Below are positions 3,470 to 42,450 of a stretch of DNA of 64,000 nt, one piece after another; position 1 is the stretch's first letter, and each line of letters begins with the position of its first letter. Under the pieces are notes generated by a model. It searched no databases. It saw nothing but the letters and a program-made list of their open reading frames with translations, and was not told the origin of the DNA. The stretch is from Thermoplasmatales archaeon (GTDB lineage Archaea; Thermoplasmatota; E2; UBA202; JdFR-43). The translations under genes and the position numbers were made by a program. The stretch is taken from assembly GCA_014361245.1 (NCBI GenBank), contig JACIWB010000002.1, forward strand, positions 4,297 to 68,296, given 5' to 3'.

Positions 3470-4524
3470 ATTACTCTCATTATCTTCTTTTCTTTATACC
3501 CTATATAAACAGGAATAAAGCCTCGGAGCATTTCATTTACTTCCTCACTTCCAGTATCCACCTTCAAATAATCAATTTTATCTAATTTTTCTTTTGTTGA
3601 AACAACTATTATATTTTCCTTTCCCACTTTTTTTATTATTTCGGCGCTTATCGGCTGGTTTCCTCTTCCAAAAATAAATCCCTGCCCTCCAAGCGGAGAG
3701 ATAACAATTTTTGCCTTTTCTCCTAAAAATCTCTTTATATCTTCCTCCCCCGCATCTTTAAAAATAATCTTTCCATTCTTTATCAAGTCTATACCAAGAA
3801 AAGAGCCATTGCCGATCCTCTTTTTTATTTCCCATGTTGTACTTCCTCCTCCTATTATATATAAAATTTCATTATTCATTTCTTCAATAACCCATGAAGC
3901 GATTTCCTCCTTATCATCTCCATAATAAGTTTCTTTTCCACACTGAATTTTTTTATGGGAGGGAACAATTGCATAGCCAACCATCTTTTTTATTATCTTC
4001 TCTTCTCTAATTGCATCCTCATCTATATCAAATATTTCTCTTTCCTCGAAATTCAATTCATCGATTTCATCGATTATCTCAGCAGCATCTCTCGGAGTTA
4101 GTGCAAATACACCAGAATACATCTTAACCCCAGAGGGAACACCAAGAATTGGAATCGAGGAGCCAACAACTTCATAAATATCTTTTGCAGTTCCATCCCC
4201 TCCAACAAATACTATTATGTCCGCAAGCTCTGAAATTATTTTTGCACTTTTTTTTGTATCCTCAGCTGTTGTCTTTCCTCCTGTTTTATAAACAACACTT
4301 AATTTTTTTCCACTTTTTAAAATAGCATTTTCTCCCATTTCAGATGAGCATGTTATAAATTCATAATCTTTTTTTATATTTGATAAAAATTCAATGGCCC
4401 TCTCTATCGCTATTGGTCTAGCCCCTCTCTTTATTGCTTCCTCGAGATTTCCATCTGTGCCCTTTAAGCCAACTTTTCCTCCCATTCCAGCAATTGGGTT
4501 GATTATAAAACCTATTTTCTTCAT
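3466..4524 (-). CDS. ATP-NAD kinase family protein (COG3199-like; NAD kinase/diacylglycerol kinase catalytic fold)
   Basis: 352 aa; GGDGT motif (IIVFVGGDGTAKDIY); second GGDGT kinase in the window, distinct from the bona fide NADK at 56983. Confidence 0.5.
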   Translation of the reverse strand: MKKIGFIINPIAGMGGKVGLKGTDGNLEEAIKRGARPIAIERAIEFLSNIKKDYEFITCSSEMGENAILKSGKKLSVVYKTGGKTTAEDTKKSAKIISELADIIVFVGGDGTAKDIYEVVGSSIPILGVPSGVKMYSGVFALTPRDAAEIIDEIDELNFEEREIFDIDEDAIREEKIIKKMVGYAIVPSHKKIQCGKETYYGDDKEEIASWVIEEMNNEILYIIGGGSTTWEIKKRIGNGSFLGIDLIKNGKIIFKDAGEEDIKRFLGEKAKIVISPLGGQGFIFGRGNQPISAEIIKKVGKENIIVVSTKEKLDKIDYLKVDTGSEEVNEMLRGFIPVYIGYKEKKIMRVI

Positions 4525-4925
4525 TTGATGGTTTCTATTCTCTCCTGAATGATTTTTTGCATTTTAAAAAGGGATTGTTTTATTTTATCTATTTTTTCCC
4601 TTGTGCTATCAGGCATGCTTTCTACTTCATCCTCTATATGCTCCAAATACCCTCGGCACGCTATCAATGTATTAAGCAAATCATATGAAATTTCTCTTAG
4701 AGGAGTAAGCTCCAGATCTCCTCTTCTCTCTCTTATAAGATGCGTCTGTGGCTCCTTTCTATAATTTATTTTTTCATATAGTTCAAGATAAAGCTGAAGC
4801 GCCTTTACAAGCTCATTTCCTAAAACAGTATGCTTCTTTCCATATTTTTCTTCTACAAACTCCTTAAATTTAAGCCATATTTTTTCCTGTTTATCATCAA
4901 CCCTTACTCCAATCGGCTTGCTCAT
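4521..4925 (-). CDS. hypothetical protein (first gene of the 4925->3065 operon)
   Basis: 134 aa, charged and helical; 4-nt overlap with the downstream kinase-like gene. Confidence 0.35.
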   Translation of the reverse strand: MSKPIGVRVDDKQEKIWLKFKEFVEEKYGKKHTVLGNELVKALQLYLELYEKINYRKEPQTHLIRERRGDLELTPLREISYDLLNTLIACRGYLEHIEDEVESMPDSTREKIDKIKQSLFKMQKIIQERIETIK

Positions 4926-4994
4926 ATTTTGCTAACAATATAAGCAGAATTTAAATATAAGCCTTTTGCAAATCTTTGGTAAAAAGCAAAATCT

Positions 4995-5004
4995 TTATAA
5001 AAAG
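4995..5004 (+). promoter_or_regulatory. putative archaeal TATA box (TTTATAAAAA) giving a long 5' leader for the surface glycoprotein gene
   Basis: AT-rich TATA-like octamer ~90 nt upstream of the start; long leaders are common for S-layer mRNAs. Confidence 0.2.
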
Positions 5005-5081
5005 GAATTGAATTCTACTTGTTTAAAATGGAAAAAGAGAAAAAGTTAAAAAAGGAAAAGCATTTTAGAAAGAAAAATTAA

Positions 5082-5086
5082 GGGGG
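5082..5086 (+). promoter_or_regulatory. Shine-Dalgarno-like GGGGG; its 7-nt spacing fits the ATG at 5094 rather than the one at 5088
   Basis: aagggggaatgaaaATGaat; spacing favours start at 5094 (MNRRNIKK...). Confidence 0.35.
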
Positions 5087-5087
5087 A

Positions 5088-8000
5088 ATGAAAATGAATA
5101 GAAGAAATATTAAAAAAATAGGAAGTTTGGTTGTGGTAGTTGCAATATTAGCGAGCGCGTTGCCAGTTGGAGCACAGGATACAAATCCGCCAGTTACAAC
5201 AGTAACATTTGAGCCAGATTTGCCAGTCTGGGGATGGCATGTAACAAATGTAACAGTAACATTAACTGCAACTGATGATGAGAGTGGGGTAAATGCAACA
5301 TATTACAGAATAAATGAAGGAGATTGGATAACATATACGGCGCCATTTACATTGAGCGCGCCAGGAAAGCATACCATAGAATATTATAGCATCGATAATG
5401 AAGGAAATGAAGAAGAGCCTAAGACGGCATATATTCCAATTGCAAATTTAACTGCATTGCAGGTAACTCCAGCAACCGCAAACTGGAATGAAACAAAAAC
5501 AATTGAAATAAACAATGCGGAGGGAACAGCTTATTTATATGCTCCCCGTGAAACAACACCAAGATATACAACTGCTGGACCAGGCTACATAAGATGGTCA
5601 AATGTATTGCTAAATATAAGTGGAAAATGGTGGATTATTGATATTGTAGATGATAGCAAAGCAAATGCATTTGCAATAGATGTTAAACCCGTTGAGCTTG
5701 TTGTAAATGCGACACCAGATGAAGTTGATTACATAAAGGTAGGGAAGCCAGGATGCTACATAAACATTGAAGGAACAGTTACGATGGCTGGTCAGCCCGC
5801 AACTCAGGCAAAAGTTAAGTTAATTTATCCCGATGGAAGCAGTGAAATCCAGAATGTTACCACAACAGGAAGTTTCTCATTTATAGATAAAAATATAGGG
5901 CAGAAGGGAGCGGGCGCATATAATGTTACTGCATTTATTGGAGATGAAGATTATCCAGATGCATCTGGCTATGATGTTGTAAATGTTAAAACAGTTACTC
6001 CAAATATAAGTGTAGTGGTTAATGATGCAGTTGGTGGATTTGATATAGGAAAAGTGGCATTTGAAGTAACATATCCAGAAGATGGGTTGCAATTGCTTCC
6101 AGGAAGCAACTATAACTTATCCATCTATAAAGGCGGAGAGCTATATGCATGGAGAAATAATACTGGAACAAGCAATGAAACAAAAATTGCATTTACCATA
6201 GATGGAAAATTCCTTAATCTGACATCATCAATGTGGGAATCTGGAAACTATTTGCTTAAAGTGAATGTTGATGTAACAGGAGATGGAAACTGGGAATATG
6301 TTGGCGAAAAAGATTTTGCCATTGCCTCGCCGCCAGCAGTGAACCTAAAGATTTTACAGCCAGTGGATAAAACAATGAATGTTTTGGCACCTGCAGCGAA
6401 TAAACAGCTATTAAGAATTCAGATATTTGGAAGCAATATGACTACTTATGGCACGCCAGAAGCGCTTGGCATAGGAGCAAATAATGAAAATTTAACTGAA
6501 AGAATTAAGATAGAAGGGGATTTGCTTTATTCTCCACCAAAAGATGCGTATAACTATATAGGAAATGGAACATGGGAAATAGATGTATTTCCGATAAAAG
6601 GAAATGGATTTATTTATATAAATATAACATGGCCTGAGAAAGGAGAAGCAAAGGAAACAATAAATATAAGTGATGGAGGAGTTGCAATTGTTACACCAAA
6701 ATCAGTAATAGTAGATACACCTACAGATATTGAAGTGGAGGTTAAGGATAAATATGGAAATCCAGTTGCAAATGCAAATGTAAATATGTATTATGAGGAT
6801 GATCTATACCTTTTGGGTGAGGCTGTTGCAAACGGAAGCATATCAGGAGATGGCTCACCTGGAAAAGGATTGAATGGAAAATACAATTTCACAATTAATT
6901 CAAAATATGCTGGAACTAATATAATAGTTGTAGTGGATTATGTAATAAGCGGAACAGGAACACAATATACATATGCAAGAATTGAATCAAGAGCAGCTCA
7001 TGATTTAAATGTAACTTTTGCTCCATCAAAAGTTCTTGCTGGAGAGAATACCGAATTTACAGTTAATGTAACAAAAGGCGGACAGGCATATTCAGATAGC
7101 TTCGAATTCTACATATTGAATGAAACAGAATTGCAGAAATTGCATGATGGAACACTTGATCTGCCATTGCCAGTATATATAACAAGCAGTGCAAATTCGA
7201 CATTCAAGTATTATATAGAGGAGGCAGGGGATTATTACCTATATGTAAGAACAGCGGATAAGAAGCATGACAATATGCAAAATGAGCCAAGCTTTGAAGT
7301 AACAAAGGCGAAGGTTACTGCAAGCCCAAGTTTGCTTGTAAAAAATGTTGATAAAAATACAACAGTTTCATTCAGTGTTGTATGGAATGAAAAAGCATTG
7401 AACGGAACACTCCGTATAATAGGAATAAGCCCGCAGAACATTACATGGGTAAATGATACAATTGAGATAACAATAACGGATGGAATAGGAAATGTAACAG
7501 AGATAAATGCAACAACAATTGGAAATATAACATTTGAATTCAAACCAGCTACTGAGGGAAGTGTTTTTGCAGAAGCGGAAGGAATGTTAAGGATAACAAC
7601 TCCAACAGTTGAAATACTCGAGCCAGCGGAAAAAGTTGCATTCCTTGCAGAGGAAAATCTGATAACAATAGTTGTAAAGCATCCATTAACAAATGCAGGA
7701 ATTGAAGGACTTAATGTTGAAGTAATTACTCCAATGGGTGCAATAGATGTTGGAGAGACAGATGCAAATGGAAAATTACTATTTGGAATTCTTCCACTTG
7801 AAACAGGAAAAATACATATATATGTTGAAGGAGATGAGGCGGGAAGCATAGATATAGCCATCGGCTTAAAGATAGTTGTTCCAGAACTTGAAAAAGGAAA
7901 GGAAGCAAAAATAACAGTTACAACAAGAGGTGGAAAACCAGTTTCTGGAGCAAAGGTAACAATAGACGGACAGACATTTACAACAGATGCAAATGGAGAG

Positions 8001-14188: not shown

Positions 14189-14798
14189 AAATATGCTGAC
14201 CGCACTCCTTATATTAATAATATTTGCGCTGATTTCCTTCCTTGTTTATTCAATCTTTACATATGTTTTTGAAGAAGTTGGTTTTAAATGGTGGGAAGCA
14301 AGCTTAATAGTTTTTAGCTCCCTGCTTTTTAGAGAGGTTAATATCCCTCTTTTTCAATATGAAAATTTAACCATAGCAATAAATTTAAGCGGTGCTCTCC
14401 TCCCGTTGCTGATAAGTGCCTACTTAATTTTATCAAGAAAAATATTTTTAAGAAGTTTGCCAGGAATAATAATTGTAACATTTGTTGCATACATGGTTAG
14501 CTATGCATCGCATGAAGGGATTGTATCGCCTTTTCCATACTGGCTTTTGCCGCCCATTTCTTCAGCTCTCTACAGCTTGGTCGCTGGCTATAAAAATAAA
14601 AGGAAGGTTGCAAGCATTGCCTATTCATGTGGGACATTTGGGGCGATTATAGGCGCGGATTTCCTCCATTTTAAAGAATTTTTGGAAATGAATTCGAGCA
14701 GACAAATTGTTGCAAGCATAGGAGGGGCAGCGATTCTTGATATGGTATTTCTTACTGGAATAATTGCGGTTATAATAGCTGCCTTATTTTATGAATGA
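14175..14798 (+). CDS. hypothetical integral membrane protein
   Basis: 207 aa with ~5 predicted TM helices; overlaps HAD gene by 14 nt. Confidence 0.4.
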   Translation: MKSIKNMLTALLILIIFALISFLVYSIFTYVFEEVGFKWWEASLIVFSSLLFREVNIPLFQYENLTIAINLSGALLPLLISAYLILSRKIFLRSLPGIIIVTFVAYMVSYASHEGIVSPFPYWLLPPISSALYSLVAGYKNKRKVASIAYSCGTFGAIIGADFLHFKEFLEMNSSRQIVASIGGAAILDMVFLTGIIAVIIAALFYE

Positions 14799-14871
14799 GA
14801 AAAATTAAGCGGCATAATTTGGTGGAAAGAGTTAAACTGCAACGCATTTTTTACTCCCCAGGACGATATGT

Positions 14872-15324
14872 TCATTCAACCGTTTTTTCATGCGATAGCT
14901 TTTCGAATATTTTCAAAAGCTCTATCTCGAGTTTTTTAATGTAGCTTCCAAATTCCCCACTAAAAACCTTGTTTTTTAGTATTTTTATCCCGCCCGCAGC
15001 ATAACTCTCAGCAATTGAATAGACCTCTTTTGGATTGAGTAAAACTTGTAAATCCCCCCTTTTATCAGCGATTGCAACAGCCTTTATAAGAGCTTTTTCC
15101 GCTGGATTTAAATATGCTACTCTATCATAATCCTTTGTTTTTTCTCTTTCTAAAGAGATCTTTTTTCTTTCACGATAGCCGATAGCCATTGCCATTAGAA
15201 ACACTGCTTTTCTTGTAGAATTTATAAATGGGCTTTCTTTTTCGTTGAGTAGGGTGTTGAAATCATCTAAGTCAGTAGCTCTAACCCGTATTATTAACGG
15301 TTCTTTGGGTCTATCCTTATTCAT
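14872..15324 (-). CDS. hypothetical 150-aa protein, last gene of the candidate defense operon (in the DndE position relative to a DndD-like ATPase)
   Basis: 8-nt overlap with the upstream ATPase gene (translational coupling); no recognisable catalytic motif; basic and helical. Confidence 0.4.
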   Translation of the reverse strand: MNKDRPKEPLIIRVRATDLDDFNTLLNEKESPFINSTRKAVFLMAMAIGYRERKKISLEREKTKDYDRVAYLNPAEKALIKAVAIADKRGDLQVLLNPKEVYSIAESYAAGGIKILKNKVFSGEFGSYIKKLEIELLKIFEKLSHEKTVE

Positions 15325-17338
15325 AGGGTTTCACCTCCGCCTCGCTTCCAGAAGTATATTCTTTGAAATTTATTTTGTAATCCTTCCAAACAACATCTGA
15401 TAATGCATCCCTTACATGGGATGTGTACTCGGTACTGGTTACCAATAATATCACCTGAGTATTTTTGAAATGCTTTGGTATCGTTTTGGCAATATTCTCT
15501 CTAGGTTCTCTATCAATTCTTGCTAAGGGTGTGTCTATAATTATAGGAGCGTCTATACCTGACACCGTATTTAATGCCGCTATAAATGCGAGTGCCAATG
15601 ATTGTCTTTCTCCGGCACTTAATGTTCCTAGCGCAGGTCTACCTTGCTGGTCAGTTACTGAAAAGGTGTAGTTATCATCTATTTTTACATCACTATATGT
15701 TATCGCTTTTGGGATTATAGCGAAAAACTCTTCTTTAGTTTTTCTTTCTATCTCCTCTCTGGTTTCCCTCATGATTTCTTCTGTAATCCTTTGTGCAGCA
15801 TTTAAAGCATATTCACAAAATGAGTTTATTTTTCTTAATTCACTTAATTTTTTCTCTTTTTTAAGTTCTTCATCCAAATCTATCTTAATAGCCTCTATCG
15901 TTGTTTCGGTTTGCCTGATTTGGGCGCACAATTCCCCTATCTTTTCATCTGCCTTCTTTATTTCGTTGTTATAATCCTCGTATCTCTCCTCCAACATTTT
16001 TATCTTTTCAATATTCACACCTTTAATTTCGTCCTCTATATTTTTCAATCTATCTCTTTTCCTATTAAGATCTTCCTCCATCTCCTTAATTTTCTCGGTG
16101 TATTTTTTAAGATTCTTATCAAAACCAATCATTTTTTCTTGGTGTCTTCTCAATTCGTTGTGAAGCTCTATAATTTCCTCTGTTATATTAGTTATCTCGT
16201 CGCACTCCTCTAAAAGTTTCTTTATTCTTAATCTATAATCATTATCCTTAGATATATCCATACCACATATACAGACACCCTCTTTTAACAATTTTTCTAA
16301 AAAATTTCTTTTATAATCTGGCGGGATCTCTCCAGCCTCCTTTCTCTTAGATATAGGTTTTAGTGATTCATCGATTGCATCGCACAGGAATATTGTTGGC
16401 GCAACACTGATAAGATAAGCGGCTTTATTTTTTTCCTCCTCAGCAAATTCATTATCAATCCTTTTTAGATCTTTTTCAATACTCTCCCTCTCTTCTGCTA
16501 ATCTCTTAATATCTTTAGGAGAAATGCCTATTAATTCTTTTTGAATCTCTTTTCTATCTGCTTCAGCTTCTTTTCTATGTGCCTTTAGTTTTTCTAAATC
16601 TTCTTCTAATTTTTTCTTTGAAGCTTCAAAACACGCCTTTTTTTCTTCTAGATCTTTTATTTTAGGCGTTAGATCCTTAGATAAGGCAAAAAACTTTTTC
16701 TTCACCTCTTCTAAATGAGAAATCACTTTTTTCAACAAATCTAGTTGTGCGATTCTAAATACGGCTTTTTTTATTTCTTCTCCAGCCTCTTCTCTAAAGT
16801 AGTCATCCAATCTCTCCCCATCGAAAAAGAAGTATTCATGAATTTCTTTAGGAAAAATCCTTTGAATCGCATTAGTTGGGTCACGGAAGTAGCCCATATC
16901 TTTCCCTATCTGTACAAGTATCTCAAGTTTTGAACCATCTGATTGATTTGAGAAATATCGATCCTTGATTATTTCGATTTTATTTTCATCTAATTTTTTC
17001 ACCTTAGCGGATCTTTTAATTTTATATTTTTTACTTTTATCAATATTAGTTAGGCCTATCTCGACTTCTATATCAGCGATTTCATTTTCTCCTACCTGGG
17101 ATAGAGAGAGTGTGTTAAGGAGTGGCAACCCTTCATATTTTTTAGATAGGTAAAATTCCTCGCCATAAAGGCACCAAGTAATCGCGTTTAGAAAATTAGT
17201 TTTTCCTGCACCTGTTGTCCCTTCGATAACTATAACATTTTTTCCAGGTTCCACGTACATATTATCAATTACAACATCTTTATACTGCCTATAATTTTTT
17301 AATTTAATATAATCAATGAACATTTCTACACCTCCCAC
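15317..17338 (-). CDS. SMC/Rad50-like ABC ATPase with long coiled coil, DndD-like (AAA_23-type N-terminus)
   Basis: 673 aa; Walker A GTTGAGKT; FFFDGERL motif; ~350-aa E/K-rich coiled coil; signature LSAGERQ; Walker B/D-loop IIIDTPLARID, where the catalytic Glu is replaced by Thr as in DndD-family proteins; no Rad50 CxxC zinc hook and no Mre11 partner. Confidence 0.6.
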   Translation of the reverse strand: MGGVEMFIDYIKLKNYRQYKDVVIDNMYVEPGKNVIVIEGTTGAGKTNFLNAITWCLYGEEFYLSKKYEGLPLLNTLSLSQVGENEIADIEVEIGLTNIDKSKKYKIKRSAKVKKLDENKIEIIKDRYFSNQSDGSKLEILVQIGKDMGYFRDPTNAIQRIFPKEIHEYFFFDGERLDDYFREEAGEEIKKAVFRIAQLDLLKKVISHLEEVKKKFFALSKDLTPKIKDLEEKKACFEASKKKLEEDLEKLKAHRKEAEADRKEIQKELIGISPKDIKRLAEERESIEKDLKRIDNEFAEEEKNKAAYLISVAPTIFLCDAIDESLKPISKRKEAGEIPPDYKRNFLEKLLKEGVCICGMDISKDNDYRLRIKKLLEECDEITNITEEIIELHNELRRHQEKMIGFDKNLKKYTEKIKEMEEDLNRKRDRLKNIEDEIKGVNIEKIKMLEERYEDYNNEIKKADEKIGELCAQIRQTETTIEAIKIDLDEELKKEKKLSELRKINSFCEYALNAAQRITEEIMRETREEIERKTKEEFFAIIPKAITYSDVKIDDNYTFSVTDQQGRPALGTLSAGERQSLALAFIAALNTVSGIDAPIIIDTPLARIDREPRENIAKTIPKHFKNTQVILLVTSTEYTSHVRDALSDVVWKDYKINFKEYTSGSEAEVKPYE

Positions 17339-17532
17339 TCTTTTGCGTATTTTTCAACAAGTTTCATATATTCATCTTGCACCCCTCGTGGGCGACTTTC
17401 GTATATATAATTGAACTCCAGCATAATTACTTCCCACAAAAATTTCTTAATTATATCTGGGTAGTCGCCTTTATCTATTTTACTCTTTATTCTTTCACTA
17501 ACATCTTCTTCTATTTTCTTCTCTTTTCTCAT
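17326..17532 (-). CDS. hypothetical 68-aa protein inside the candidate defense operon
   Basis: Overlaps the ATPase start by 13 nt and lies 6 nt after the helicase gene; helical and charged. Confidence 0.35.
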   Translation of the reverse strand: MRKEKKIEEDVSERIKSKIDKGDYPDIIKKFLWEVIMLEFNYIYESRPRGVQDEYMKLVEKYAKEWEV

Positions 17533-17538
17533 TTTCCT

Positions 17539-19677
17539 TTACACCCCTTCCCATAATTTTTTTTCGATTTTATAAATATTATTGAGGCACTCTAAACTAT
17601 TGACCGCGATTTCAGCGAATTCTTTATACCTGATTAATTCTTTATAAAATATCTTTCTTTCCAAATCTTCTATTGAGGAGTTATTTATCCATGAGAGTGC
17701 AGGTACCACTATAACATCGTATATTATTGCTTTTTCTTTTCCGGGAAAACGTCTTAGAACTCTTCCTCTCCTCTGAATCCATTCTCGGGGGTTACTACTA
17801 CTCATTAGGATTATTGCAGTAGTAGCGGCTGGTACATCAACTCCTTCATCTAAGCATCGGATAGCCACTAAAACTTGGTATGTTCCTTCCGCAAATTTTT
17901 GAAGTAAAAATTCTCTCTCTGATAACCCACCATACTCCTCGCTAGGGGTAATCTTTTCTCTTAGAGTAAATTTATGTTGGGTGATATTCAATTCATTCAA
18001 AATATTTTGTACATGATTTATTTGTTCTGGCGAACAATAAACCAAACAATGTTTAATATTCTTACCCATTTCTTCTATTATTTTTTTAAAAGTATCGTAC
18101 TTTTTAATTGCGTTTTTTATAATCTCCTGTCGTTTAACGCACAATAACGAAAACCATTTCTTACGCTCGTTATCTGTTTTTGAGCTATAGTATGATTTAG
18201 CGATTTTTTTTGTGACACTCTCGTATCTTTCCAATTCTTCCTTATTTAATTCCACAAAATAAGGTTTATATTCGTAGGGTACCAGATAAGTTTTCCCTGT
18301 AGCTGGATTTAGTGTATTAACAGCATCTTTTAACGAAAATTCGAACACAGTGCCACCGAAATAATTGAAAAGTGTTTCAGTACCTTCCAAATCAAACCAT
18401 CGCTTAGGTGTTGCGCTTAATCCTAGCCTAAAATGGTAGAGATCCAGCAAACCTCTTTTCCTTTTTGGCGCTCCAATTCCATGAACTTCATCTACAATCA
18501 AAAACAATTTTTCATTTGCAGATCGAATTATTTTGATAAAATTATCTGTATGAAAAGTGGCGTGTGTTGTTAGCACAATTAAATTATTTTCAATCCCGAT
18601 TTTTATATCTATTAGGGAATCAGAGAGTTTATCTTTCCAATCAGGATTGCTACTGTCTGCAACAATATATTCACAGGTTAAACCAAATTCATCTATATCA
18701 TTAATCCACTGTCTTATCAAATGATTAGATGGGCAAGTTATAACTGCTATTGTTTTATTATAATTTTCCATTACTTTTTTAAGGCATCCTAAAGCAGCAA
18801 AAGTTTTCCCTAAACCTGTAGCCATCTCAAAAATTCCTTTCATGTCATTATTAAACCATTTCTGAATCGCATCCTTTTGATGTGGGTAAAACTCTATTTC
18901 CTTCTTCTTTTCTCCTTTCTTCAGATACCATCTTTGGAGGTAAACCTCATCGATGTTTTTTGGTGCTATTTCGATTAATTTCCTTTTAACTGCTTCGGGC
19001 ACCTCCATAACTATTATTCGGGAAGCTTTATTATTCCAGAATCTTTCAAATTTTAATATGTCGGCCTCTACATATTCTTTTTCCTCTTTTATCCATTTTC
19101 TAAAAACTTTAAATTCCTCAATATTTTTTAGCCATCCAGACGCAGATTCGTTTATAGATCCACTAAAGGTAAGAATATCTCCCACTATATCTTTTAAAAT
19201 TCCTATCTTTTGATGAAACACACCTTGTAATTGAATTTCATCGAAACTCAGGGGTTGTCCATCTTCATCTGAAACTATGGCAACTTTTATTTCTAATCTT
19301 TTATTCGCAATCATCCATCCGAGCGCAAAAATATGATCTCTTATAAATTCATCCTCTAATTTTTCTAGTTCTTCAACCATTCTCCTCTCTACATAGTTTT
19401 GAGGATTTTCAGTAGCATCTTTAATAATTTTAATGTCTTTTTCATCTAATTTTGGTGATACCAATAATTTCATTGTGCCATTGTTTTTTATTAACCCAAG
19501 AATTCCTCGTGCCGCGATAGCTAAACTAGTCGATGAAAAAAATCCAGCAATCCTGTCATACTCTATACACTCTGATAACGCCGGGATATAAAAATCGTTT
19601 AAAATATCATCAGTATCTGATGAATATGTCTTTTTTAATGACAAATCTCTAAACCCCATATTTGCACCAATTTTCAA
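17539..19677 (-). CDS. fusion protein: N-terminal phospholipase-D-family (HKD) nuclease domain + SF2 helicase (ResIII/DEAH-type)
   Basis: 712 aa; HKD motif HQKIGILKD-x6-FSGSINESASGW (aa ~155-182); helicase motifs Q/I (PHQKDAI, EMATGLGKT), II (VDEVH), III (GLSATP), VI (QRRGRVLR). Confidence 0.7.
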   Translation of the reverse strand: MKIGANMGFRDLSLKKTYSSDTDDILNDFYIPALSECIEYDRIAGFFSSTSLAIAARGILGLIKNNGTMKLLVSPKLDEKDIKIIKDATENPQNYVERRMVEELEKLEDEFIRDHIFALGWMIANKRLEIKVAIVSDEDGQPLSFDEIQLQGVFHQKIGILKDIVGDILTFSGSINESASGWLKNIEEFKVFRKWIKEEKEYVEADILKFERFWNNKASRIIVMEVPEAVKRKLIEIAPKNIDEVYLQRWYLKKGEKKKEIEFYPHQKDAIQKWFNNDMKGIFEMATGLGKTFAALGCLKKVMENYNKTIAVITCPSNHLIRQWINDIDEFGLTCEYIVADSSNPDWKDKLSDSLIDIKIGIENNLIVLTTHATFHTDNFIKIIRSANEKLFLIVDEVHGIGAPKRKRGLLDLYHFRLGLSATPKRWFDLEGTETLFNYFGGTVFEFSLKDAVNTLNPATGKTYLVPYEYKPYFVELNKEELERYESVTKKIAKSYYSSKTDNERKKWFSLLCVKRQEIIKNAIKKYDTFKKIIEEMGKNIKHCLVYCSPEQINHVQNILNELNITQHKFTLREKITPSEEYGGLSEREFLLQKFAEGTYQVLVAIRCLDEGVDVPAATTAIILMSSSNPREWIQRRGRVLRRFPGKEKAIIYDVIVVPALSWINNSSIEDLERKIFYKELIRYKEFAEIAVNSLECLNNIYKIEKKLWEGV

Positions 19678-19865
19678 TCAACTACTATTATCTAATATAA
19701 TAGAATTTTAAAAATTTTGTGCCTATCGCTTATAACTATCTCTATAGAGCGAATGAAAATCCTCTTTATCAACCGTTGCCCGATCTTCAAAAATTATTTA
19801 ACTTTTTGCGATGCCGAATATCAGCAATGAATGAGAAAAATTATAAGGCAAGGAAATATAACTTT

Positions 19866-21155
19866 ATGCTTCGCACCCATTATATAAATGAAATAAGCGA
19901 AAAGGAACATGAAAAAAGGGTTTGCATTGCTGGATGGGTTGAAGAAATAAGAAATCTTGGAGGAATAGCATTCATAATTTTAAGGGATAGAAGTGGGAAA
20001 GCACAAATCACAGCAATAAAAAAGGAAAATGCCGAACTTTTTAAGGCAATTACCTCGCTGAACAGGGAGAGTGTGATATCAGCATGCGGAATATGCAAGA
20101 GGAATGAAAAAGTAATGAATGGATGGGAAATTTTGCTTGAGGAATTTAAATTAATCAGCGAGGCATCAACACCTCTTCCAATGGGAGTAATAGATAAGGT
20201 TAATGTTGATTTCGATACCCGTCTTGATAACAGGATAATAGATTTAAGAAAAGATGATGTTAAAGCAATTTTTATGATAAGAAATTCATTTATAAAGTAT
20301 GCTTCAGAATTTTTAAGAAAAAAAGGTTTTATGGAAGTTCATACTCCAAAAATTTCATCTTCATCATCTGAAGGAGGAACAGAAGTCTTCAGAATAGATT
20401 ATTTTGATAGAGATGCATATCTTGTGCAATCTCCCCAACTATACAAACAAATGTTAATGGCAACTGGTTTTGATAGAGTTTTTGAAATAGCATGGTATTT
20501 CAGGGCGGAGGAGCATGACACAACCCGCCATCTTAATGAATCAACTGCTGTTGATATAGAAATGGCATTCATCGATAGCGAGGAAGATGTGATGAGAATT
20601 GCAGAGGAAATGACAGATTATTCAATAAATAAAATAGTTGGTGAGAATAGCAAGGAATTGAGCATTCTTAACGCTGAAATAGAATTCCCATCTCCTCCAT
20701 ATCCAAGAATAAGGTATGATGAAGTTGTTGAAATACTTAGTAAGGAAATAAATTTTTCATGGGGAGAAGATTTGGGGGCGGATGAGGAAAATATTTTATA
20801 CAAAAATTTGGGATATGATATTTATTTCATAAAGGATTTCCCTCTATCATCAAAACCATTTTATGCAATGCCATCTGGGAAATATGCAAGAGCATTTGAT
20901 CTCGAGCTAAGGGGAATGGAAATTGCATCTGGCGCACAGCGCATTCATGATTATGAACTGCTTACTAAAAGAATGATCGAGCTTGGAATGAATCTAAAAA
21001 ATTTCGAAGAATATCTGAAAGCATTTAAATATGGAATGCCTACCCATGGCGGATTTGGTTATGGAATTGAGCGCTTCCTAATGAGCTTTCTTAAATTGAA
21101 AAATATAAGAGAATGCATACTTTTTCCAAGAGATAGATACAGAATTAAACCTTAA
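19866..21155 (+). CDS. asnS: asparaginyl-tRNA synthetase (class II)
   Basis: Strong motif-level similarity to archaeal AsnRS (FRAEEHDTTRHLNEST, SWGEDLGADEE, GGFGYGIERFLM with ER not DR). ORF track starts at 19719 but the homology-supported start is MLRTHYINE at 19866 (alternative 19827). Confidence 0.75.
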   Translation: MLRTHYINEISEKEHEKRVCIAGWVEEIRNLGGIAFIILRDRSGKAQITAIKKENAELFKAITSLNRESVISACGICKRNEKVMNGWEILLEEFKLISEASTPLPMGVIDKVNVDFDTRLDNRIIDLRKDDVKAIFMIRNSFIKYASEFLRKKGFMEVHTPKISSSSSEGGTEVFRIDYFDRDAYLVQSPQLYKQMLMATGFDRVFEIAWYFRAEEHDTTRHLNESTAVDIEMAFIDSEEDVMRIAEEMTDYSINKIVGENSKELSILNAEIEFPSPPYPRIRYDEVVEILSKEINFSWGEDLGADEENILYKNLGYDIYFIKDFPLSSKPFYAMPSGKYARAFDLELRGMEIASGAQRIHDYELLTKRMIELGMNLKNFEEYLKAFKYGMPTHGGFGYGIERFLMSFLKLKNIRECILFPRDRYRIKP

Positions 21156-21315
21156 GGCATAAATAATTTCCTCATTTGGAGAAGTATAAAATTTCTTATT
21201 CCATACAAACCCTGAAATTTGTGATATGCATTTTATATGCCTGTTTTCTCTCATCTTCAAATCTTATTAAAATCTCATTCCAACTAAAATTGATCTAACA
21301 TATAAATTTTTAAAG

Positions 21316-21424
21316 TCCCGGCGGCCGGATTTGAACCAGCGACTTGCGGATTTCCGCGGCGGTGGGTTATAACCCAAGAGATGCAACTACAGTCCGCCAC
21401 TCTACCAGTCTGAGTTACGCCGGG
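21316..21424 (-). tRNA. tRNA-Tyr (GTA) with ~35-nt intron at the canonical 37/38 position
   Basis: Hand fold: acceptor CCCGGCG/CGCCGGG with C1-G72 and A73 (archaeal Tyr identity), D-stem ACTC/GAGT, anticodon stem GCGGA...TCCGC, loop CUGUAG|intron|A, 5-nt variable loop, T-arm GCTGG-TTCAAAT-CCGGC. Confidence 0.75.
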
Positions 21425-21437
21425 CAATAATATATAA

Positions 21438-21452
21438 TACATTTTTTTAAAT
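21438..21452 (-). promoter_or_regulatory. putative TATA box for tRNA-Tyr (TTTAAAAAAATG on minus strand)
   Basis: AT-rich TATA-like element centred ~20-27 nt upstream of the tRNA 5' end; overlaps the 3' end of the DP2 ORF. Confidence 0.2.
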
Positions 21453-21458
21453 TTTTTG

Positions 21459-24400
21459 TTAGAAGAAATCGGTGAGGGTTTTATCTTTTCCATTTCTAAA
21501 GAGTGATTCAACAAATTTTTCTGAAAGCAAGATGCGCTGTTTTGTATAATTTGGTATATCAAATTCCTCTGCCAGTTTCTTTATAACTCCTAAATATTTC
21601 TTTATAGAACTTTCATGAACTGTTAGTAATAGCGTGCTTCCGCATTTTCCACATTTTCCAGTTAAAGTGATGCGGCGATATTTTGTATTACAATTTGTGC
21701 ATCTGAACTGCTGTTTTGTGAAAGCTTTTAAATTTCCTGTTAAATCCGGAAGGAAATGTTTTTGAATTATTTTTGTAACAACATCTACTTCATCAACAGC
21801 CCTTATCTTTATTGCCAGATTTATCTGTGCCATTACCTTATCCTCCATGTTTTCATATAGCTTATATGAAGATGTTTTTGGAGCATTTGCTATGTTGCTT
21901 GTATCATGAGTAAATCCAAAAAATTTATACTCTTTTTCACTCCCAATTCTATTTGCAACTAAATCCATTTCCTTTTCAAGTTCTTTTGAATGAGCGTAAA
22001 TATGAGTTTTTCTGTAGAATAGCAGAGGATAGGAACTTAAGACATCCAAACTCAATGCTTCCTTATCTATTTCACTTGGAGAAATTCTTGTTGCTATAAC
22101 AAGTGGTAAGTCCATTTTTCCCCCTCTTTTTTCGGGTATATATTCTTTTGAGAAATTTATTAATACATCGGTAAGAAGCATCAATGAATCCTCATCACCA
22201 TCGCAATTCCTCCTTTTTGCTGCATGGAAAAATGGATGGGCACAGCATACATTTAAGTCAATAAATCCAATTATTCTTCCAATGATTCCCGCTGATGTAT
22301 GGGGGGATAAACCAACTACTAAGTGTCCTATTAAATCATCCAGACTATTTGCATTGTAATATGCATCAATTTCATAAATTTTTAAAAGCATTTCATCAAT
22401 ATATTTAGCAACTCTGAGAAAGTATTCTCCACATTTTTTTGAGGGTATAACATCCTGTGGCATCAGTTCAACAATTTGATTATCATTTACTAATTCATTT
22501 CCTTTATAATCATATTTATATCCTAACTCTCTAAGTTTTTCTACAGAAACACCTATTTCATATGGTTTAAAATGAGTTAATGGCATATTTGTCATATCGT
22601 ATCTTATAGTTCCATCTTTAAAAACATAAACATCATATTTTGCTCTTATAATTCCTTTTTCTATGCATTCTGGAGTTTTACTTGAAGAGGATAAACCAAT
22701 AACTCCCTTAACCTTCTTCATCTGTGTATTTATTCTTTTTTCGGATTTACTCAATTCCTCCTTAACATCTATTTCAAAATTTTTTATATTTCCCGTAAAA
22801 TATGTATGCCCGCCGCACTCACATTTTGTTTTATAACCTATTCTTCCACAATTTTCACATCTCCTTTCTCCCAATTCAGCAATTATTTTCCCTGTTGTAT
22901 TTAAAATCCTTTCCTTTCCCCCCTTCTCAATTCCTACAGGGAAGAGAACATGCGGGGCGGGCGACATTTTCCTTTCGGCGGATTTCTCGGGTCTTCCCAT
23001 TCTTGCTCCTATTCTGTGAATTGCTTTAGGAATTATTTTTATTCCAAGAATTTCCTGAACAGCATCAATTGCCTCCTTTGAACTATTTTTAACTTCAAAA
23101 ATTTTTCCATCAATCAATTCAAATCCGCAGCACTTGATAATTACATCTGCATATTTCTCTACAATATAGCCATCTCTTTCAAGATGAGTGACTCCAAGAT
23201 TTAATAAAATTTCCTTTAATCTTTTATCTCTTTCAAGATATAACTTTCCATCATATCTTGCTTTTTTTATAAAATTTCTCAAAATCTGAAAATCATCCTT
23301 ACTTATATCATGCCAGAAAAGATTATAGGAAGGATGGAGCGGGATTCCATATTCTCTCGATAATTCAATTGCTTTTTCAAAAGATATGCTTTCAAAACTC
23401 TCTATTCCATGCTTTATTTTTACCTCTTCAATATTTGTTTTTTCCTCAAGTTCTTTAATCCACCATTCATAGCAAAAACTTGCGGGAGGAAGAATTGAAT
23501 TGTTCTCAAAAAATTCTCCAAAAGGTATTAAAATTTCTCCCAAATCAATTATTTCCCTAACATTTTTGGCAATTTTAACCGCTTCCTCAAGAGAATTCAC
23601 CTGTATAAAATCCCCGTTATCAAGCAAAACCATCGGTCCTTCGATACTGTCGCAAGGAGTTGCAATCGTTCCCTTCCCCGGTCTTTCGGTCTTAAGCTGT
23701 GTCCCAACCGCAATAAATCCATCTAGCAAATACATGGTTGCAGGATGCATTGCTGTTGCCCCCAGCCCGCAACTTCTCGCCCTCCCATATCTGAGCCTGA
23801 AGCCACCCTTGCGAGATGGATGACTTATTACAGGGCGCCCACCAATCAGATCTTCAATATATCTTTTAGATGGTTCTATTTCCCTGTTCTCATCCACTTC
23901 TTTAGAAAAGTTTTTCAGGAAATTCCATCCTTCAAGATTTAATCTTGTAACATGTTTCATAAGCTTTGGTGCTTTAAGGCAGAGTCCTTCGGCTATTACA
24001 AGGCATGCCCCCCCTCTTATTCTATTTGTTTTTATTCTTGGCAAATCTCTTTTACCCATTACCTCATCCTTTTCAGTTGGCTCGCCATTTATACAGATAG
24101 GGCAATTTCTTATGATTAGTTCTATCTCCTCTGAGGATGGTAAATATTGCAAATGTGTTATTCTATCATAAAGAGGGATTTCTTCCTTATATCTTTCAAC
24201 TTCATCATCAGTTGGCTTATATCTATCTACTCCTAATTTTCTTCTGACAACATCAGCAATTAATACACTCATTGCTTCTCCTGTTCCTCCGGCAGAGCGA
24301 ATAGGTCCAGAAAAATAAAGGTCAACATATCTACTTCCATCAAAATTTTTTCCAATCTCAACAGATGATATTCCTTCTATGGGAGCAACTAAAACACCTT

Positions 24401-26358: not shown

Positions 26359-27525
26359 ATGTACCTCACGCCCGAGCAGGAAAAAATGCTTGATGGTGAA
26401 GAAGGGGAAATTGTCGCCAGGATGCTCCGCCTTCTTGTAAGGCTTGGAGAGGTTTATAAAGCGGAAAAAATGATTGAAGTTTCTTCAGCCCAGATTGCGG
26501 GTGTTTCATATAAATCAATAGAAGATGCTGGTCTCGAATTTCTTGAAGATATAGCAAAAGAAGCAAGGGTTAAAATTTTAACATATTTAAATCCAGCTGG
26601 CATGGATTTAGAAAAGTGGGAGGAAATGGGTATAAGCAAGGAGTTTGCTGAAAAACAGATGGCTATAATAAATGCCTTTAAAAAGATGGGAATTGTAATT
26701 TCTGCAACCTGCACACCATATCTTGCAGGAAATTTACCAAGATATCGCCAGCACATAGCATGGAGCGAGTCATCCGCTGTTTCATTTGCAAACTCGGTTA
26801 TAGGGGCAAGAACAAACCGTGAAGGAGGTCCTTCCGCTCTTGCAGCAGCAATAACAGGTTTAACACCTTATTATGGCTTGCATTTAGATGAAAACAGGGA
26901 GCCAGATTTTATTATAGATGTAAAAGCAAATCTTTTGAACCCCACAGATTTTGCAGCACTGGGCTATCATGTAGGGGAAGAAATCAAGAATAAAATACCA
27001 TATTTCAGGGGAATAAAAGATGCTGATGTAGATGATTTAAAGCAGATGGGGGCGGCGATGGCGGCTGCTGGCGCTGTCGCAATGTATCATGTTGAGGGGA
27101 TTACACCCGAGGCAAATGAATATGAAATTAAGGGGAAGGAGAAAATTGAGGTGGGCAATGAAGATGTGGAAGAAGTTTATTCAAAATTGAGCAATAGCGG
27201 GGATGTGGATATAGTGATTTTCGGCTGCCCACACGCCTCCCTTAATGAAATAATAAAAATTGCAAAATTTTTAGGCAATAGGAAAGCTAAAAGAAATTTC
27301 TGGATATGCACTTCTCGAGCTGTTAAGGAAGTTGCGGAAAGAATGGGTATAAATGAGAAAATTGAGAAAGCTGGCGGAAAGATAATAGCAGATACATGCA
27401 TGGTTGTTTCACCAATTGAAAAAATTTTTGAAAAAACTGGGGTGAATTCTGCAAAAGCGGCCCACTATCTACCAAGTTTTTGCAATCAAAAGGTTCTTTT
27501 TGCGAGAATGGAGGAATTAATATGA
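26359..27525 (+). CDS. aconitase X large (catalytic) subunit, DUF521; phosphomevalonate dehydratase large subunit of the archaeal alternative MVA pathway
   Basis: 388 aa; N-terminal LTPEQEKMLDGEEGE pattern and overall AcnX DUF521 architecture; followed by an overlapping DUF126 small subunit. Confidence 0.65.
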   Translation: MYLTPEQEKMLDGEEGEIVARMLRLLVRLGEVYKAEKMIEVSSAQIAGVSYKSIEDAGLEFLEDIAKEARVKILTYLNPAGMDLEKWEEMGISKEFAEKQMAIINAFKKMGIVISATCTPYLAGNLPRYRQHIAWSESSAVSFANSVIGARTNREGGPSALAAAITGLTPYYGLHLDENREPDFIIDVKANLLNPTDFAALGYHVGEEIKNKIPYFRGIKDADVDDLKQMGAAMAAAGAVAMYHVEGITPEANEYEIKGKEKIEVGNEDVEEVYSKLSNSGDVDIVIFGCPHASLNEIIKIAKFLGNRKAKRNFWICTSRAVKEVAERMGINEKIEKAGGKIIADTCMVVSPIEKIFEKTGVNSAKAAHYLPSFCNQKVLFARMEELI

Positions 27526-27914
27526 AAGGGAGGACAATATACCCGGGGAAAGTGAAGGGTGAGGCAATAGTGAGCAGGGAAGCATTCAGCTTTTATGGAG
27601 GTGTTGATACAAAAAGTGGAATAATAATTGACAAAAATAGCTCTCTATATGGAAAATGTATAAAGGATAAGATATTTGTTTTTCCTTGCGGAAGGGGTTC
27701 AACGGTTGGCTCGTATGTAATTTATGCTCTAAAAAGGAATGGAGTTGCTCCTAAGGCAATAATAAATAAGGAGACGGAAACAATAGTTGCAACTGGGGCA
27801 ATAATTGCTGGCTTAGTATGCGTTGATGGAATTGATATAGATGCCATAGAAGATGGGGATATTGTTATAGTGGATGCAAAAGAAGAAGAAGCGGATGTGA
27901 TAGTGGAAAAATGA
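27522..27914 (+). CDS. aconitase X small (swivel) subunit, DUF126; phosphomevalonate dehydratase small subunit
   Basis: ~130 aa from ATG 27522 (ATGA overlap with large-subunit stop); GKVKGEAIVSREAFSFYGGVD typical of DUF126. Confidence 0.65.
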   Translation: MKGRTIYPGKVKGEAIVSREAFSFYGGVDTKSGIIIDKNSSLYGKCIKDKIFVFPCGRGSTVGSYVIYALKRNGVAPKAIINKETETIVATGAIIAGLVCVDGIDIDAIEDGDIVIVDAKEEEADVIVEK

Positions 27915-28663
27915 TTATCATAAAATTAGGAGGAAGTGTTATAAGTGATAAAGAAAAGCCATTCTCCTTCAATAAAAGAATTGTTGAGCAGATTGCAGAT
28001 GAAATTAAGCCATTTTACCCAGAAAAAAAATTTTTGATTGTGCATGGCGGCGGGAGCTACGGCCATCCTCTGGCTAAAAAATATGGAATAAAGGGTGGAT
28101 GGAGCAAGGAAAAGGCGGCGGGATTTTATAAGACGCATAGGGCAATGATGGAATTGAACATGAAAATAGTTGATATTTTTGTTGAAAAGGAATTGCCATC
28201 CTTTCCTGTTTGCCCTTCCTCAATTTTTATAGTCAAGGAGGGAGAGATTGTTGATGGCTATACAGAGATTATTGAAAAATTGATTGAAAAAGATTTTATT
28301 CCTTTCCTTTATGGAGATGTATCAATTTCAGTTGAAAGGGGAATCGATATTTTATCGGGAGATCAAATAGTGACATATCTTGCAAATAATTTTTCTGCTG
28401 AAAAAGTCATATTTTTGATGGATGTTGACGGAATTTATGATAGAAATCCAAGCGAAGGAGATGCGAAATTAATTGAATTAATTGATGAAAAAATTGAAAT
28501 AAAGGCAAGTAAAGGATTTTTTGATGTTACTGGTGGAATAAAAAATAAGATTGAAGAAGCAATGAAAATTGATTGCGATGTTTATTTCATAAATGGAAAA
28601 ATAAAAGGGAATTTAACAAAAGCGATTAAGGGAGAAAAAGTTGGAACAGTAAAATTTAAATGA
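27911..28663 (+). CDS. ipk: isopentenyl phosphate kinase (amino-acid-kinase fold)
   Basis: 250 aa; IIKLGGSVISDK ... VHGGGSYGH motifs characteristic of IPK. Confidence 0.75.
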   Translation: MIIIKLGGSVISDKEKPFSFNKRIVEQIADEIKPFYPEKKFLIVHGGGSYGHPLAKKYGIKGGWSKEKAAGFYKTHRAMMELNMKIVDIFVEKELPSFPVCPSSIFIVKEGEIVDGYTEIIEKLIEKDFIPFLYGDVSISVERGIDILSGDQIVTYLANNFSAEKVIFLMDVDGIYDRNPSEGDAKLIELIDEKIEIKASKGFFDVTGGIKNKIEEAMKIDCDVYFINGKIKGNLTKAIKGEKVGTVKFK

Positions 28664-28679
28664 TAAAGGATATAACTTT

Positions 28680-31014: not shown

Positions 31015-31034
31015 TTTAAATAATTAATGGGAAG

Positions 31035-41380: not shown

Positions 41381-42061
41381 CTAATATATTTCATTTTCCG
41401 AAAGATGAAGTGCCTCTTCAATCCTCCCCATCTCAATTCCAGTTGTTTCGCTCCCAACAATTGCGCCATGCTCATTCGCAACAGCCCCCGCCCCCACAAA
41501 TGGCATCCCGTGATTTACTGTGCCTATTTCCACCTCAACTCCAAGAACCTGCTCAATCAATTTTTTTTCCTCTTCCTTTATTTTTGGATGACATAAAACA
41601 CCCTTATTTGTTGCTATCCCCAGCATTCCGACGGTATTGAGCCCAGCTATTGTTCCTTTCCTTACTTCCACTTTCATAATTTTTTCCAATTTTTTTATTG
41701 TGCTGTCCCCAATTAAAGGATGAACAATTGCTCCATAATCATTTGCAAGTATGTTATTTCCAGCAGCATTGAACTTATCTTTTAAAATAAATATTTCTCC
41801 ATCGAATTTATCTTTGATTATTTCAATTTCTTCTTTTTCAATAAAATCCGTTACAACAATTGCATTTGAATTTATAACTGCAAGCGAGCCAATAATTGTG
41901 CTGCTTCCTATTGTTAATTCAAAAGCCTTTACTTTGAGAATTTTCTCAATATCGTTCTTTGTTTTTTCTGGAAGGAAAGGTTGAACAAAAGCTATTGAAT
42001 TATTAACCCTGCAGTAAATACCTAAATATGGATTTCCATTAAAATCAATCTTTTTCAGCAT
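41381..42061 (-). CDS. eif6: translation initiation factor 6 (aIF6)
   Basis: 226 aa; five-fold pseudo-repeat with GNPYLGIY..., SSTIIGSLA..., HPLIGDST... elements typical of eIF6. Confidence 0.8.
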   Translation of the reverse strand: MLKKIDFNGNPYLGIYCRVNNSIAFVQPFLPEKTKNDIEKILKVKAFELTIGSSTIIGSLAVINSNAIVVTDFIEKEEIEIIKDKFDGEIFILKDKFNAAGNNILANDYGAIVHPLIGDSTIKKLEKIMKVEVRKGTIAGLNTVGMLGIATNKGVLCHPKIKEEEKKLIEQVLGVEVEIGTVNHGMPFVGAGAVANEHGAIVGSETTGIEMGRIEEALHLSENEIY

Positions 42062-42446: not shown

Positions 42447-42450
42447 AAAA

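Follow-up and report, generated by a model that had tools for sequence, protein, structure and literature searches.

A probable PbeABCD defence cassette with a CxC-clade ABC ATPase in a Thermoplasmatales archaeon

To which family, and to which system, does an SMC-like ATPase belong that has a threonine where the catalytic glutamate is expected and no phosphorothioation genes around it? This question is raised by a minus-strand open reading frame (ORF) at positions 15317-17338 of a 64,000-nucleotide stretch of contig JACIWB010000002.1 (positions 4,297 to 68,296; assembly GCA_014361245.1), part of a metagenome-assembled genome (MAG) of a Thermoplasmatales archaeon; this whole stretch is referred to below as the window. 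In an initial annotation the product was described as a DndD-like ATPase recruited into a different system. The analysis reported here leads to a more specific reading, to which a probability of roughly 85 % is given: the gene (15317-17323, minus strand) encodes PbeC and stands third in a complete defence cassette, pbeA-pbeB-pbeC-pbeD (PbeABCD, or 'CxC ATPase-DndE'), whose genes are translationally coupled and which was acquired as a 5.0-kb unit. The initial annotation was thus right in placing the gene outside a dnd operon, but the system is not a new one, since PbeABCD was published in 2019 (Xiong et al., PMC6459918) and re-annotated in 2024 (PMC10853773), and the partner genes lie adjacent in canonical order. 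Recognition of the locus adds a Thermoplasmatales example to a defence system that has so far been tested with a haloarchaeal cassette only.

The assignment to PbeC is carried by profile scores and motifs. The PADLOC model PDLC02723 (PbeC) matches the protein over its full length with 427.1 bits (E=2.8e-128), while the best PADLOC DndD model reaches 207.2 bits. The best NCBIfam match is TIGR03185 (DndD), also over the full length (E=2.3e-61), although its score of 208.1 bits lies below the equivalog cut-off of 245.85 bits. Given these two E-values, membership of the family is far above chance. Motifs were compared in an alignment of five proteins, namely the window PbeC, two other PbeCs and two genuine DndDs, one from the dndBCDE operon of a P. 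aeruginosa plasmid and one from the dndCDEA-pbeABCD locus of Halorubrum trapanicum. The pattern F-x-F-[DN]-G-E is common to all five and DTPLxRxx to four; the Walker B/D-loop reads DTPLARLD and DTPLGRLD in the genuine DndDs of the dndBCDE and dndCDEA operons and DSPAVSID in the H. trapanicum PbeC. A C-I-C-G element in the middle of the coiled coil is present only in the PbeCs, including the window copy, while the two DndDs have no cysteine hook. Because DTPLxRxD and FxFDGE are shared by both clades, they are diagnostic of the DndD/CxC superfamily and not of DndD itself.

Two further samples were used to assess conservation: 120 close homologues, and 145 sequences from a 50 %-identity representative library that are 28-56 % identical to the window PbeC. 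D-T-P is found in all 120 close homologues and DTPLxRxD in both genuine DndDs, which upholds the initial view of this motif as a consensus of the DndD lineage. The DndD-like label likewise holds at the level of the superfamily but not of the family, as the twofold difference between the PADLOC scores and the cysteine hook point to the sister clade. The CxC motif defines the 'CxC-clade ABC ATPase', a sister clade of DndD that the Aravind group equates with PbeC (PMC10853773). On its profile matches and motifs, the pbeC product is accordingly classed as a PbeC/CxC-clade ABC ATPase and not as DndD proper.

The minus-strand frame at 15317-17338 is present as annotated, and its translation contains GTTGAGKT, FFFDGERL, LSAGERQ and IIIDTPLARID. 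The GTG at 17338, however, is not the start: the coding sequence begins at the ATG at 17323, because an identical 668-residue protein is on record and a Shine-Dalgarno-like element, GGAGGTG, which overlaps the end of pbeB, is located just upstream. The resulting gene, pbeC (15317-17323; all pbe genes and motifs lie on the minus strand), encodes a protein of 668 residues identified as a CxC-clade (zinc-hook) ABC ATPase of the sister family of DndD from profile scores, an AlphaFold2 (AF2) model and Foldseek. The computed coordinates place Walker A (GTTGAGKT, residues 35-42) at 17198-17221, exactly where it was first reported, with G40 and K41 conserved in all 145 representatives. The Q-loop-like FFFDGERL (residues 165-172) lies at 16808-16831 and the CIC (C351-x-C353) of the predicted apical zinc hook at 16265-16273; neither this CIC nor the three pbe partner genes had been noted in the initial annotation. 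The ABC signature LSAGERQ (residues 568-574) is encoded at 15602-15622 and the Walker B and D-loop, IIIDTPLARID (residues 594-604), at 15512-15544, in which the DTPLARID part occupies 15512-15535, in agreement with the initial position, and the Thr598 codon 15530-15532. The H-loop region QVILLVTSTEY (residues 623-633; 15425-15457) is without a His.

The AF2 model of PbeC (predicted local distance difference test, pLDDT, 81.7) has residues 1-190 and 540-668 as the two parts of a split head, and helices 195-329 and 379-536 (2 x ~140 residues) as an antiparallel coiled coil, with the CxC in a short non-helical apex element between them. The E/K-rich coiled coil of about 350 residues noticed initially corresponds to this region, a stretch of 342 residues with 34 % E+K. 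The best Foldseek match of the model is Rad50 (E=6e-20), followed by SMC, Lamassu LmuB and JetC; no structure of DndD or PbeC was among the PDB entries searched. Both cysteines are conserved in 120 of 120 close homologues and in 144-145 of 145 representatives, and the CIC is predicted to form a zinc hook at the coiled coil's apex.

The gene order pbeA-B-C-D is the same as in the dndCDEA-pbeABCD reference locus of H. trapanicum. The first gene, pbeA (17539-19659), encodes a 706-residue protein in which an HKD (PLD-type) nuclease domain is fused to a superfamily 2 (SF2) helicase/translocase, and an exact 706-residue entry is on record. It scores 797.9 bits with the PADLOC PbeA model and 440.5 bits with TIGR04095 ('phosphorothioation system restriction enzyme'); the PLD anti-phage N-terminal region of NF042964 is followed by ResIII and Helicase_C, and Pfam DEAD is also matched. 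Its single HKD motif, FHQKIGILKD ... SGSINES (19144-19218), is kept in 11 of 11 aligned PbeAs, among them the haloarchaeal reference, where it reads FHDKxGI ... HGSQNDS. Of the helicase motifs, I (MATGLGKT, 18802-18825) and II (VDEVH, 18481-18495) fall within 18481-18825, and motif VI (QRRGRVLR) is encoded at 17752-17775. Upstream of pbeA, a non-coding, AT-rich leader within the insert (19660-19826, minus strand) presumably contains a promoter belonging to the cassette. The maximal ORF of the divergent aspS gene (19719-21155, plus strand; 478 residues, GTG start) is over-extended, as homologues and the MAG annotation have 429 residues; the aspS start is therefore near 19866, and an intergenic region of ~200 bp is shared with pbeA.

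The second gene, pbeB (17326-17532), encodes a small conserved protein of 68 residues that is recognized by its position and its similarity to relatives; 2 nt separate its stop codon from the ATG of pbeC. PbeB is 44-51 % identical (BLASTP E ~1e-20 to 1e-21) to small ORFs at the same position in four related loci (L009-L011 and L023), its similarity to haloarchaeal PbeBs is marginal, and it has no match in Pfam, NCBIfam or PADLOC, a result that held at E<=1 and for reference PbeBs run as controls. The small gene of H. trapanicum carries the NCBI name 'CxC ATPase DNA modification system associated small protein'. PbeB has been described as fast-evolving and mostly disordered (PMC10853773). Within the present clade it is well conserved (hNxKIxxKI ... 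EIKxFL ... ExxHxDExRPR ... Y ... KY) and looks small and helical.

The fourth gene, pbeD (14872-15324), has a start that overlaps the pbeC stop by 8 nt, as ATGAATAA. It encodes a 150-residue double ribbon-helix-helix (RHH) protein, a DndE-like DNA-binding partner ('dnd-associated protein 4'), which matches TIGR04062 with E=2.4e-9 and the precomputed Pfam family PF27807. In the AF2 model (pLDDT 91.3; predicted template modelling score 0.83), two beta-alpha-alpha units are followed by a long C-terminal helix (residues 125-149). The 12 best Foldseek matches among ~350,000 PDB chains are all DndE (4LRV, 5WTU, 7X4E), with a probability of 0.95-0.98 and target-normalised template modelling scores of 0.59-0.68 against DndE folds. 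By this predicted fold PbeD is a 'clade-2 DndE'. All four pbe ORFs are full length in comparison with their homologues, and Shine-Dalgarno-like elements and translational coupling are preserved. In the annotation of the MAG (proteins MBC7128250-277), PbeA appears as 'DEAD/DEAH box helicase family protein' and PbeD as 'hypothetical protein H5T45_00790'.

The cassette occupies a strain-specific insert of 5,019 bp (14808-19826), delimited by blastn against the corresponding loci of two sister Thermoplasmatota MAGs, L018 and L019. In both, DUF1614 is followed 31 bp on by aspS with no cassette, and the left flank is 86.7 % identical to that of the window at the nucleotide level over 10 kb. A 17-bp direct repeat, ATGAATGAGAAAAATTA, is exact at both junctions and occurs in only two copies in the window: the left copy (14791-14807, plus strand) overlaps the DUF1614 stop codon, and the right copy lies at 19827-19843 (plus strand; family D9), with 21 of 24 bases identical when the repeat is extended. 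In the sister genomes the sequence occurs once, with 16 of 17 bases matching. The GC content of the insert is 0.335 compared with 0.343 in the flanks, and no convincing integrase, transposase, tRNA or inverted repeats were found at the insert ends. Because the sister MAGs are without the cassette and the repeat is present at both junctions, the 5.0-kb cassette is read as an acquisition that entered as one unit between DUF1614 and aspS. Sisters at ~87 % nucleotide identity that are without it, with junctions defined to the base, constitute a natural experiment.

In both sister MAGs, CRISPR-Cas directly follows aspS (L018 13494-21290; L019 11633-21197), with Cas1, Cas2 and Cas4 in each; L018 adds type III Csm/Cas10, and L019 adds type I Cas3/Cas7/Cas6 together with an array with the repeat ATTTCAATCCTACCTTAGTCCGATTTTAAC. 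No CRISPR-Cas, array or orphan repeat is present at 21156-21460 of the window, where aspS is followed directly by PolD. The aspS neighbourhood is a variable defence hotspot in this lineage, on both sides of the gene.

Pfam and NCBIfam scans of the window ORFs of at least 110 residues revealed no dnd, ssp, DNA-methylase or radical-SAM gene, and neither a PAPS-reductase-type DndC nor a cysteine desulfurase in the 64 kb, so that the initial remark that dndA and dndC do not accompany the ATPase stands. Apart from the cassette, these scans recognised only housekeeping genes, including those for PolD DP2, aIF-2, XPD, several aminoacyl-tRNA synthetases, Cdc48 and the mevalonate pathway. The linkage to dndCDEA that marks the characterised system is therefore absent from the window; this linkage does not define the family, as Xiong et al. 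counted 320 solitary pairs among 553 pbeAC pairs, with methylases near 155 of the solitary ones (PMC6459918). The comparison with the sister genomes shows that the restriction-like half of the system moves alone, which fits the published non-toxicity of PbeABCD without phosphorothioate (PT).

For the ATP site of PbeC, P. furiosus Rad50 served as the reference. Aligned to it with phmmer, IIIDTPLARID falls opposite LILDEPTPYLD, which puts Thr598 at the position of the catalytic Glu, as had been proposed, and Ser630 on the H-loop His. D597-T598-P599, E170, C351 and C353 are invariant in the 120 close homologues. Among the 145 representatives, position 598 is T in 127, R in 9, A in 4, S in 4 and M in 1, and is never acidic; the Walker B D597 is present in all, and the H-loop-His column has D, P, E, G, S or N but never His. 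Several other residues are near-invariant in the same sample: D168 (D 134, N 9), G169, E170 (E 138, D 5), Q623 (145 of 145), T629 and E632 (E 135, D 9). Distant bacterial members have DSP or DAP at Walker B and keep FFFDGE and CIC. Read across these sequences, the missing Glu and His are traits of the whole family and not a defect of the window copy. The missing-Glu trait holds superfamily-wide, down to 28 % identity, and models of DndD and PbeC must explain turnover without the canonical Glu and His.

SpfD, a DndD, is reported to be an ATPase (Yao 2009, as cited in PMC6435447), and because of this report it is probable that the DndD/PbeC family can do without the canonical Glu in ATP hydrolysis. 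Judged by motif pattern and not by alignment, D168 would stand in the place of the Rad50/SMC Q-loop Gln, and the D-G-E motif may supply the catalytic acid; its near-invariance makes it an obvious candidate for such a role. A broader proposal, which is put forward tentatively and is considered rather doubtful, is that the superfamily has a rewired ABC site, in which the carboxylate has moved from the position after the Walker B Asp to the Q-loop D-G-E and the H-loop His is dispensable, and that a solitary PbeABCD could in consequence be a slow, ATP-gated DNA-scanning clamp that uses a mark other than PT.

What such a mark might be is suggested by the closest relatives. The contexts of ten PbeCs that are 39-58 % identical to the window protein share the order pbeA-B-C-D throughout, and dndCDEA is absent from the 10 kb around each of them. 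In eight of the ten, a gene of 384-469 residues from one homologous family directly follows pbeD, often with overlapping stop and start codons (L009 11045-12304; L010 8508-9761; L011 5008-6318; L012/L013 12422-13576; L014 12407-13696; L015 7083-8492; L017 12437-13789; L023 2692-3990). Every member of this fifth-gene family has a CxxxCxxC motif, and the matches to B12-binding radical-SAM families, including P- and C-methyltransferases, are weak and far below the cut-offs. A ninth context, L016, instead has two radical-SAM genes upstream (4607-7494, divergent), and the contexts of some relatives add N4/N6 or C5 methylases. The fifth gene left no trace in the window (tblastn with the relatives' proteins, best E=0.058), and L022, a relative at 58 % identity, also seems to be without it. 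The radical-SAM-type fifth gene may be a new modification partner of CxC-DndE systems; that most close relatives carry it hints at a DNA modification that may be non-canonical and not based on sulphur. Neither the active-site rewiring nor the pairing with radical SAM, nor any other connection between radical SAM enzymes and Pbe or CxC systems, was found described in the literature covered, which did not extend to the 2020 classification of ABC ATPases (Krishnan et al.).

Further afield, the plasmid of Halobaculum rubrum (NZ_CP082285.1; L001 12441-20488) provides an example of the methylase-linked CxC variant, in which pbeABCD precedes two hypothetical genes and a set of three DNA methyltransferases, including a Dam-family member, with an HNH endonuclease gene upstream. 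Scans of viral contigs found no close relative of PbeC, only two matches at ~25 % identity; these distant PbeC-like proteins (25-26 % identity) are encoded on IMG/VR viral or proviral contigs (L024 8001-9896; L025 8001-9818).

The function of the system has been studied with the cassette of Haloterrigena jeotgali expressed in Natrinema, in which all four pbe genes were required against virus SNJ1 and the activity needed PT in the host DNA (PMC6459918). PT-modified virus escapes, the DndA C344S mutation abolishes defence, and in the absence of PT modification pbeABCD confers no protection and causes no toxicity (PMC6459918). The later re-annotation describes the components as a CxC ATPase, a DndE, an HKD-helicase and a small protein, and the Aravind group views PbeC and PbeD as a DNA-scanning core like DndD-DndE and PbeA as the nuclease effector (PMC10853773). 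On the basis of such family knowledge and of the models described above, a mechanism may be outlined for the window cassette. Two PbeC protomers would join at the CxC zinc hook and at heads that sandwich ATP, as in Rad50, and together with the double-RHH PbeD they would make up a clamp that scans DNA and recognises both specific sites and how these are modified. The clamp would license PbeA, with its HKD nuclease and SF2 translocase, against invader DNA, and PbeB would have a regulatory role. Hydrolysis by PbeC would presumably be slow and/or catalysed by an acidic residue of the Q-loop-like D168-G-E170. Since the reference PbeABCD is inert without PT and no modification gene is encoded in the 64 kb, the window cassette would either be silent or rely on a modification whose genes lie elsewhere in the genome. 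The non-toxicity of a solitary cassette plausibly provides a route to its acquisition alone.

Other readings of the same data concern both the identity of the ATPase and its activity. A true DndD of the DndACDE phosphorothioate modification machine, stranded from its dndC and dndE partners, could account for the full-length TIGR03185 match as the best in NCBIfam, for the DTPLxRxD and FxFDGE motifs common to genuine DndDs and for the name 'DNA sulfur modification protein DndD' that some sources give to homologues. It is nevertheless highly improbable and already largely refuted, given the score below the equivalog cut-off, the PADLOC PbeC models scoring twice as high as those of DndD, the CxC hook that is absent from DndDs and the embedding of the gene in pbeA-B-C-D with no dndC, dndE or dndA in 64 kb. 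Even less credible is a Rad50/SbcC- or SMC-type ATPase of genome maintenance that acts in double-strand-break repair or chromosome organisation. Rad50 is indeed the nearest solved structure by sequence and by fold, Pfam matches include SMC_N and AAA_23, and PbeC was termed SMC-like by Xiong et al. However, the protein scores 35-42 bits with the Rad50/SbcC models of NCBIfam against cut-offs of 478-1,087 and 29-35 bits with SMC models against cut-offs of 567-729. The profile comparison suggested initially, of TIGR03185 with SbcC-type models, therefore came out in favour of DndD, and the best matches were not to Rad50/SbcC proteins with a conserved Walker B Glu. Moreover, the protein has neither the Walker B Glu nor the H-loop His, its hook is CxC and not CxxC, it has no hinge (no SMC_hinge match in Pfam), no Mre11/SbcD or ScpAB is encoded nearby, and the gene is missing from the sister genomes, unlike a housekeeping gene. 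A Rad50/SbcC/SMC identity was ruled out by the family scores together with the strain-specific presence.

With PbeC accepted as the identity, its activity may still be conceived differently. The E-to-Q mutants of ABC ATPases and naturally degenerate ABC sites bind ATP and hydrolyse it barely, and PbeC might similarly bind ATP without hydrolysis as a nucleotide-gated dimerisation switch, in line with position 598 never being acidic and the H-loop column never containing His in the 145 representatives. This is rather unlikely: a DndD with the same DTP motif is reported to be an ATPase, Walker A, the signature motif and the Asp of Walker B have all been retained, and polar or acidic residues beside the site (D168, E170, Q623 and E632) are near-invariant, which favours a conserved catalytic apparatus over decay. 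A more serious possibility, although one still regarded as doubtful, is that the cassette is a functionless orphan, a horizontally acquired restriction half-system that would be unable to act without its modification partner and is drifting toward loss. The 64 kb encode no modification gene, the reference system does nothing without PT, and Xiong et al., who counted the solitary pbeAC pairs, raised the same possibility (PMC6459918); in addition, the radical-SAM fifth gene of most close relatives is absent here. Against drift stand the four full-length ORFs, the intact Walker A and B, signature, CxC, HKD and helicase I, II and VI motifs, and the preserved translational coupling with Shine-Dalgarno-like elements.

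Several observations weigh against the reading of the locus as an active PbeABCD system with the mechanism outlined above. The link between PbeD and DndE is a fold ranking with weak E-values of 0.075-0.26; comparison of the PbeD alignment by hhalign, both with DndE sequences and with haloarchaeal PbeD, gave no signal, and the TIGR04062 score of 37.5 bits lies below the cut-off of 74.25. The relocated catalytic Glu is putative. Viral DNA was not found to be degraded in the experiments of Xiong et al. (PMC6459918), which is in tension with a nuclease role of PbeA. With no modification partner within 64 kb the cassette could be inert, and, as the nearest relatives pair with radical SAM and/or methylases, the dependence on PT may not transfer to this clade.

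Comparison with known systems places the PbeABCD cassette most closely beside the characterised DndCDEA-PbeABCD of H. jeotgali A29 (PMC6459918), with which it shares the PbeC family by profile, the four-gene order, the CxC hook, the FxFDGE motif, the absence of the Walker B Glu, the HKD-helicase partner and the sizes of PbeB (68 residues versus 66) and PbeD (150 versus 152). It differs in that the host is a Thermoplasmatales MAG and its PbeC is only 22-32 % identical to haloarchaeal PbeCs. The reference has dndCDEA, which the window copy has neither adjacent nor elsewhere in the 64 kb; the nearest relatives of the window copy (39-57 % identity) have no dnd genes but carry the radical-SAM fifth gene, and the window copy is without either. 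DndD resembles PbeC in full-length homology, a head with a coiled coil of ~350-400 residues, DTPLxRxD, FxFDGE and a DndE-type double-RHH partner, but it lacks the CxC hook and installs sulphur in concert with DndC, DndE and DndA, whereas PbeC sits with a nuclease-helicase.

Rad50/SbcC proteins share with PbeC the split ABC head, the antiparallel coiled coil and a cysteine zinc hook at its apex. Rad50 has D-E at Walker B, a Q-loop Gln, an H-loop His, a CxxC hook, a longer coil and Mre11 as a partner, whereas PbeC has D-T, D-G-E (equivalent to the Q-loop by motif pattern), no His, CxC and a double-RHH partner. SMC proteins have a hinge, a coiled coil of ~800-1,000 residues and kleisin/ScpAB, in contrast to the 342-residue coil of PbeC with its CxC apex and no hinge. 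Lamassu LmuB, Wadjet JetC and Septu PtuA are likewise SMC/Rad50-like ATPases, recruited to defences against invaders that employ nuclease effectors; LmuB and JetC came up in the structural comparison of PbeC, while PtuA matches at the Walker A region only. These three show no detectable family-level sequence kinship to PbeC beyond the ABC head and have other partners, with no DndE-type subunit. PbeA resembles type I and type III restriction enzymes in that a ResIII-type SF2 translocase is fused to a nuclease, and ATP-dependent action has been proposed (PMC10853773). It differs from them in its HKD/PLD nuclease and in that recognition would be performed by a separate ABC ATPase-RHH pair instead of a methylase or specificity subunit.

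Elsewhere in the window, a plus-strand cluster at 26359-32980 resembles an archaeal-type mevalonate/isoprenoid pathway. It contains the large subunit of aconitase X (AcnX) with a small ORF (27480-27914), a polyprenyl synthetase, an amino-acid-kinase-family protein (possibly isopentenyl phosphate kinase) and an FMN-dependent dehydrogenase-like protein (possibly IDI-2), with a SAICAR-synthetase-like gene and an MFS transporter interspersed. Four ORFs have no Pfam match at E<=0.001, namely 51719-53449 (plus strand, 576 residues), 60890-61651 (plus strand, 253 residues), 4521-4925 (minus strand, 134 residues) and 43722-44111 (minus strand, 129 residues). An imperfect CT-rich tandem repeat with periods of 21, 27 and 33 is located at 42071-42187, at the junction of the ORFs 42045-42446 (minus strand) and 42060-42584 (plus strand).

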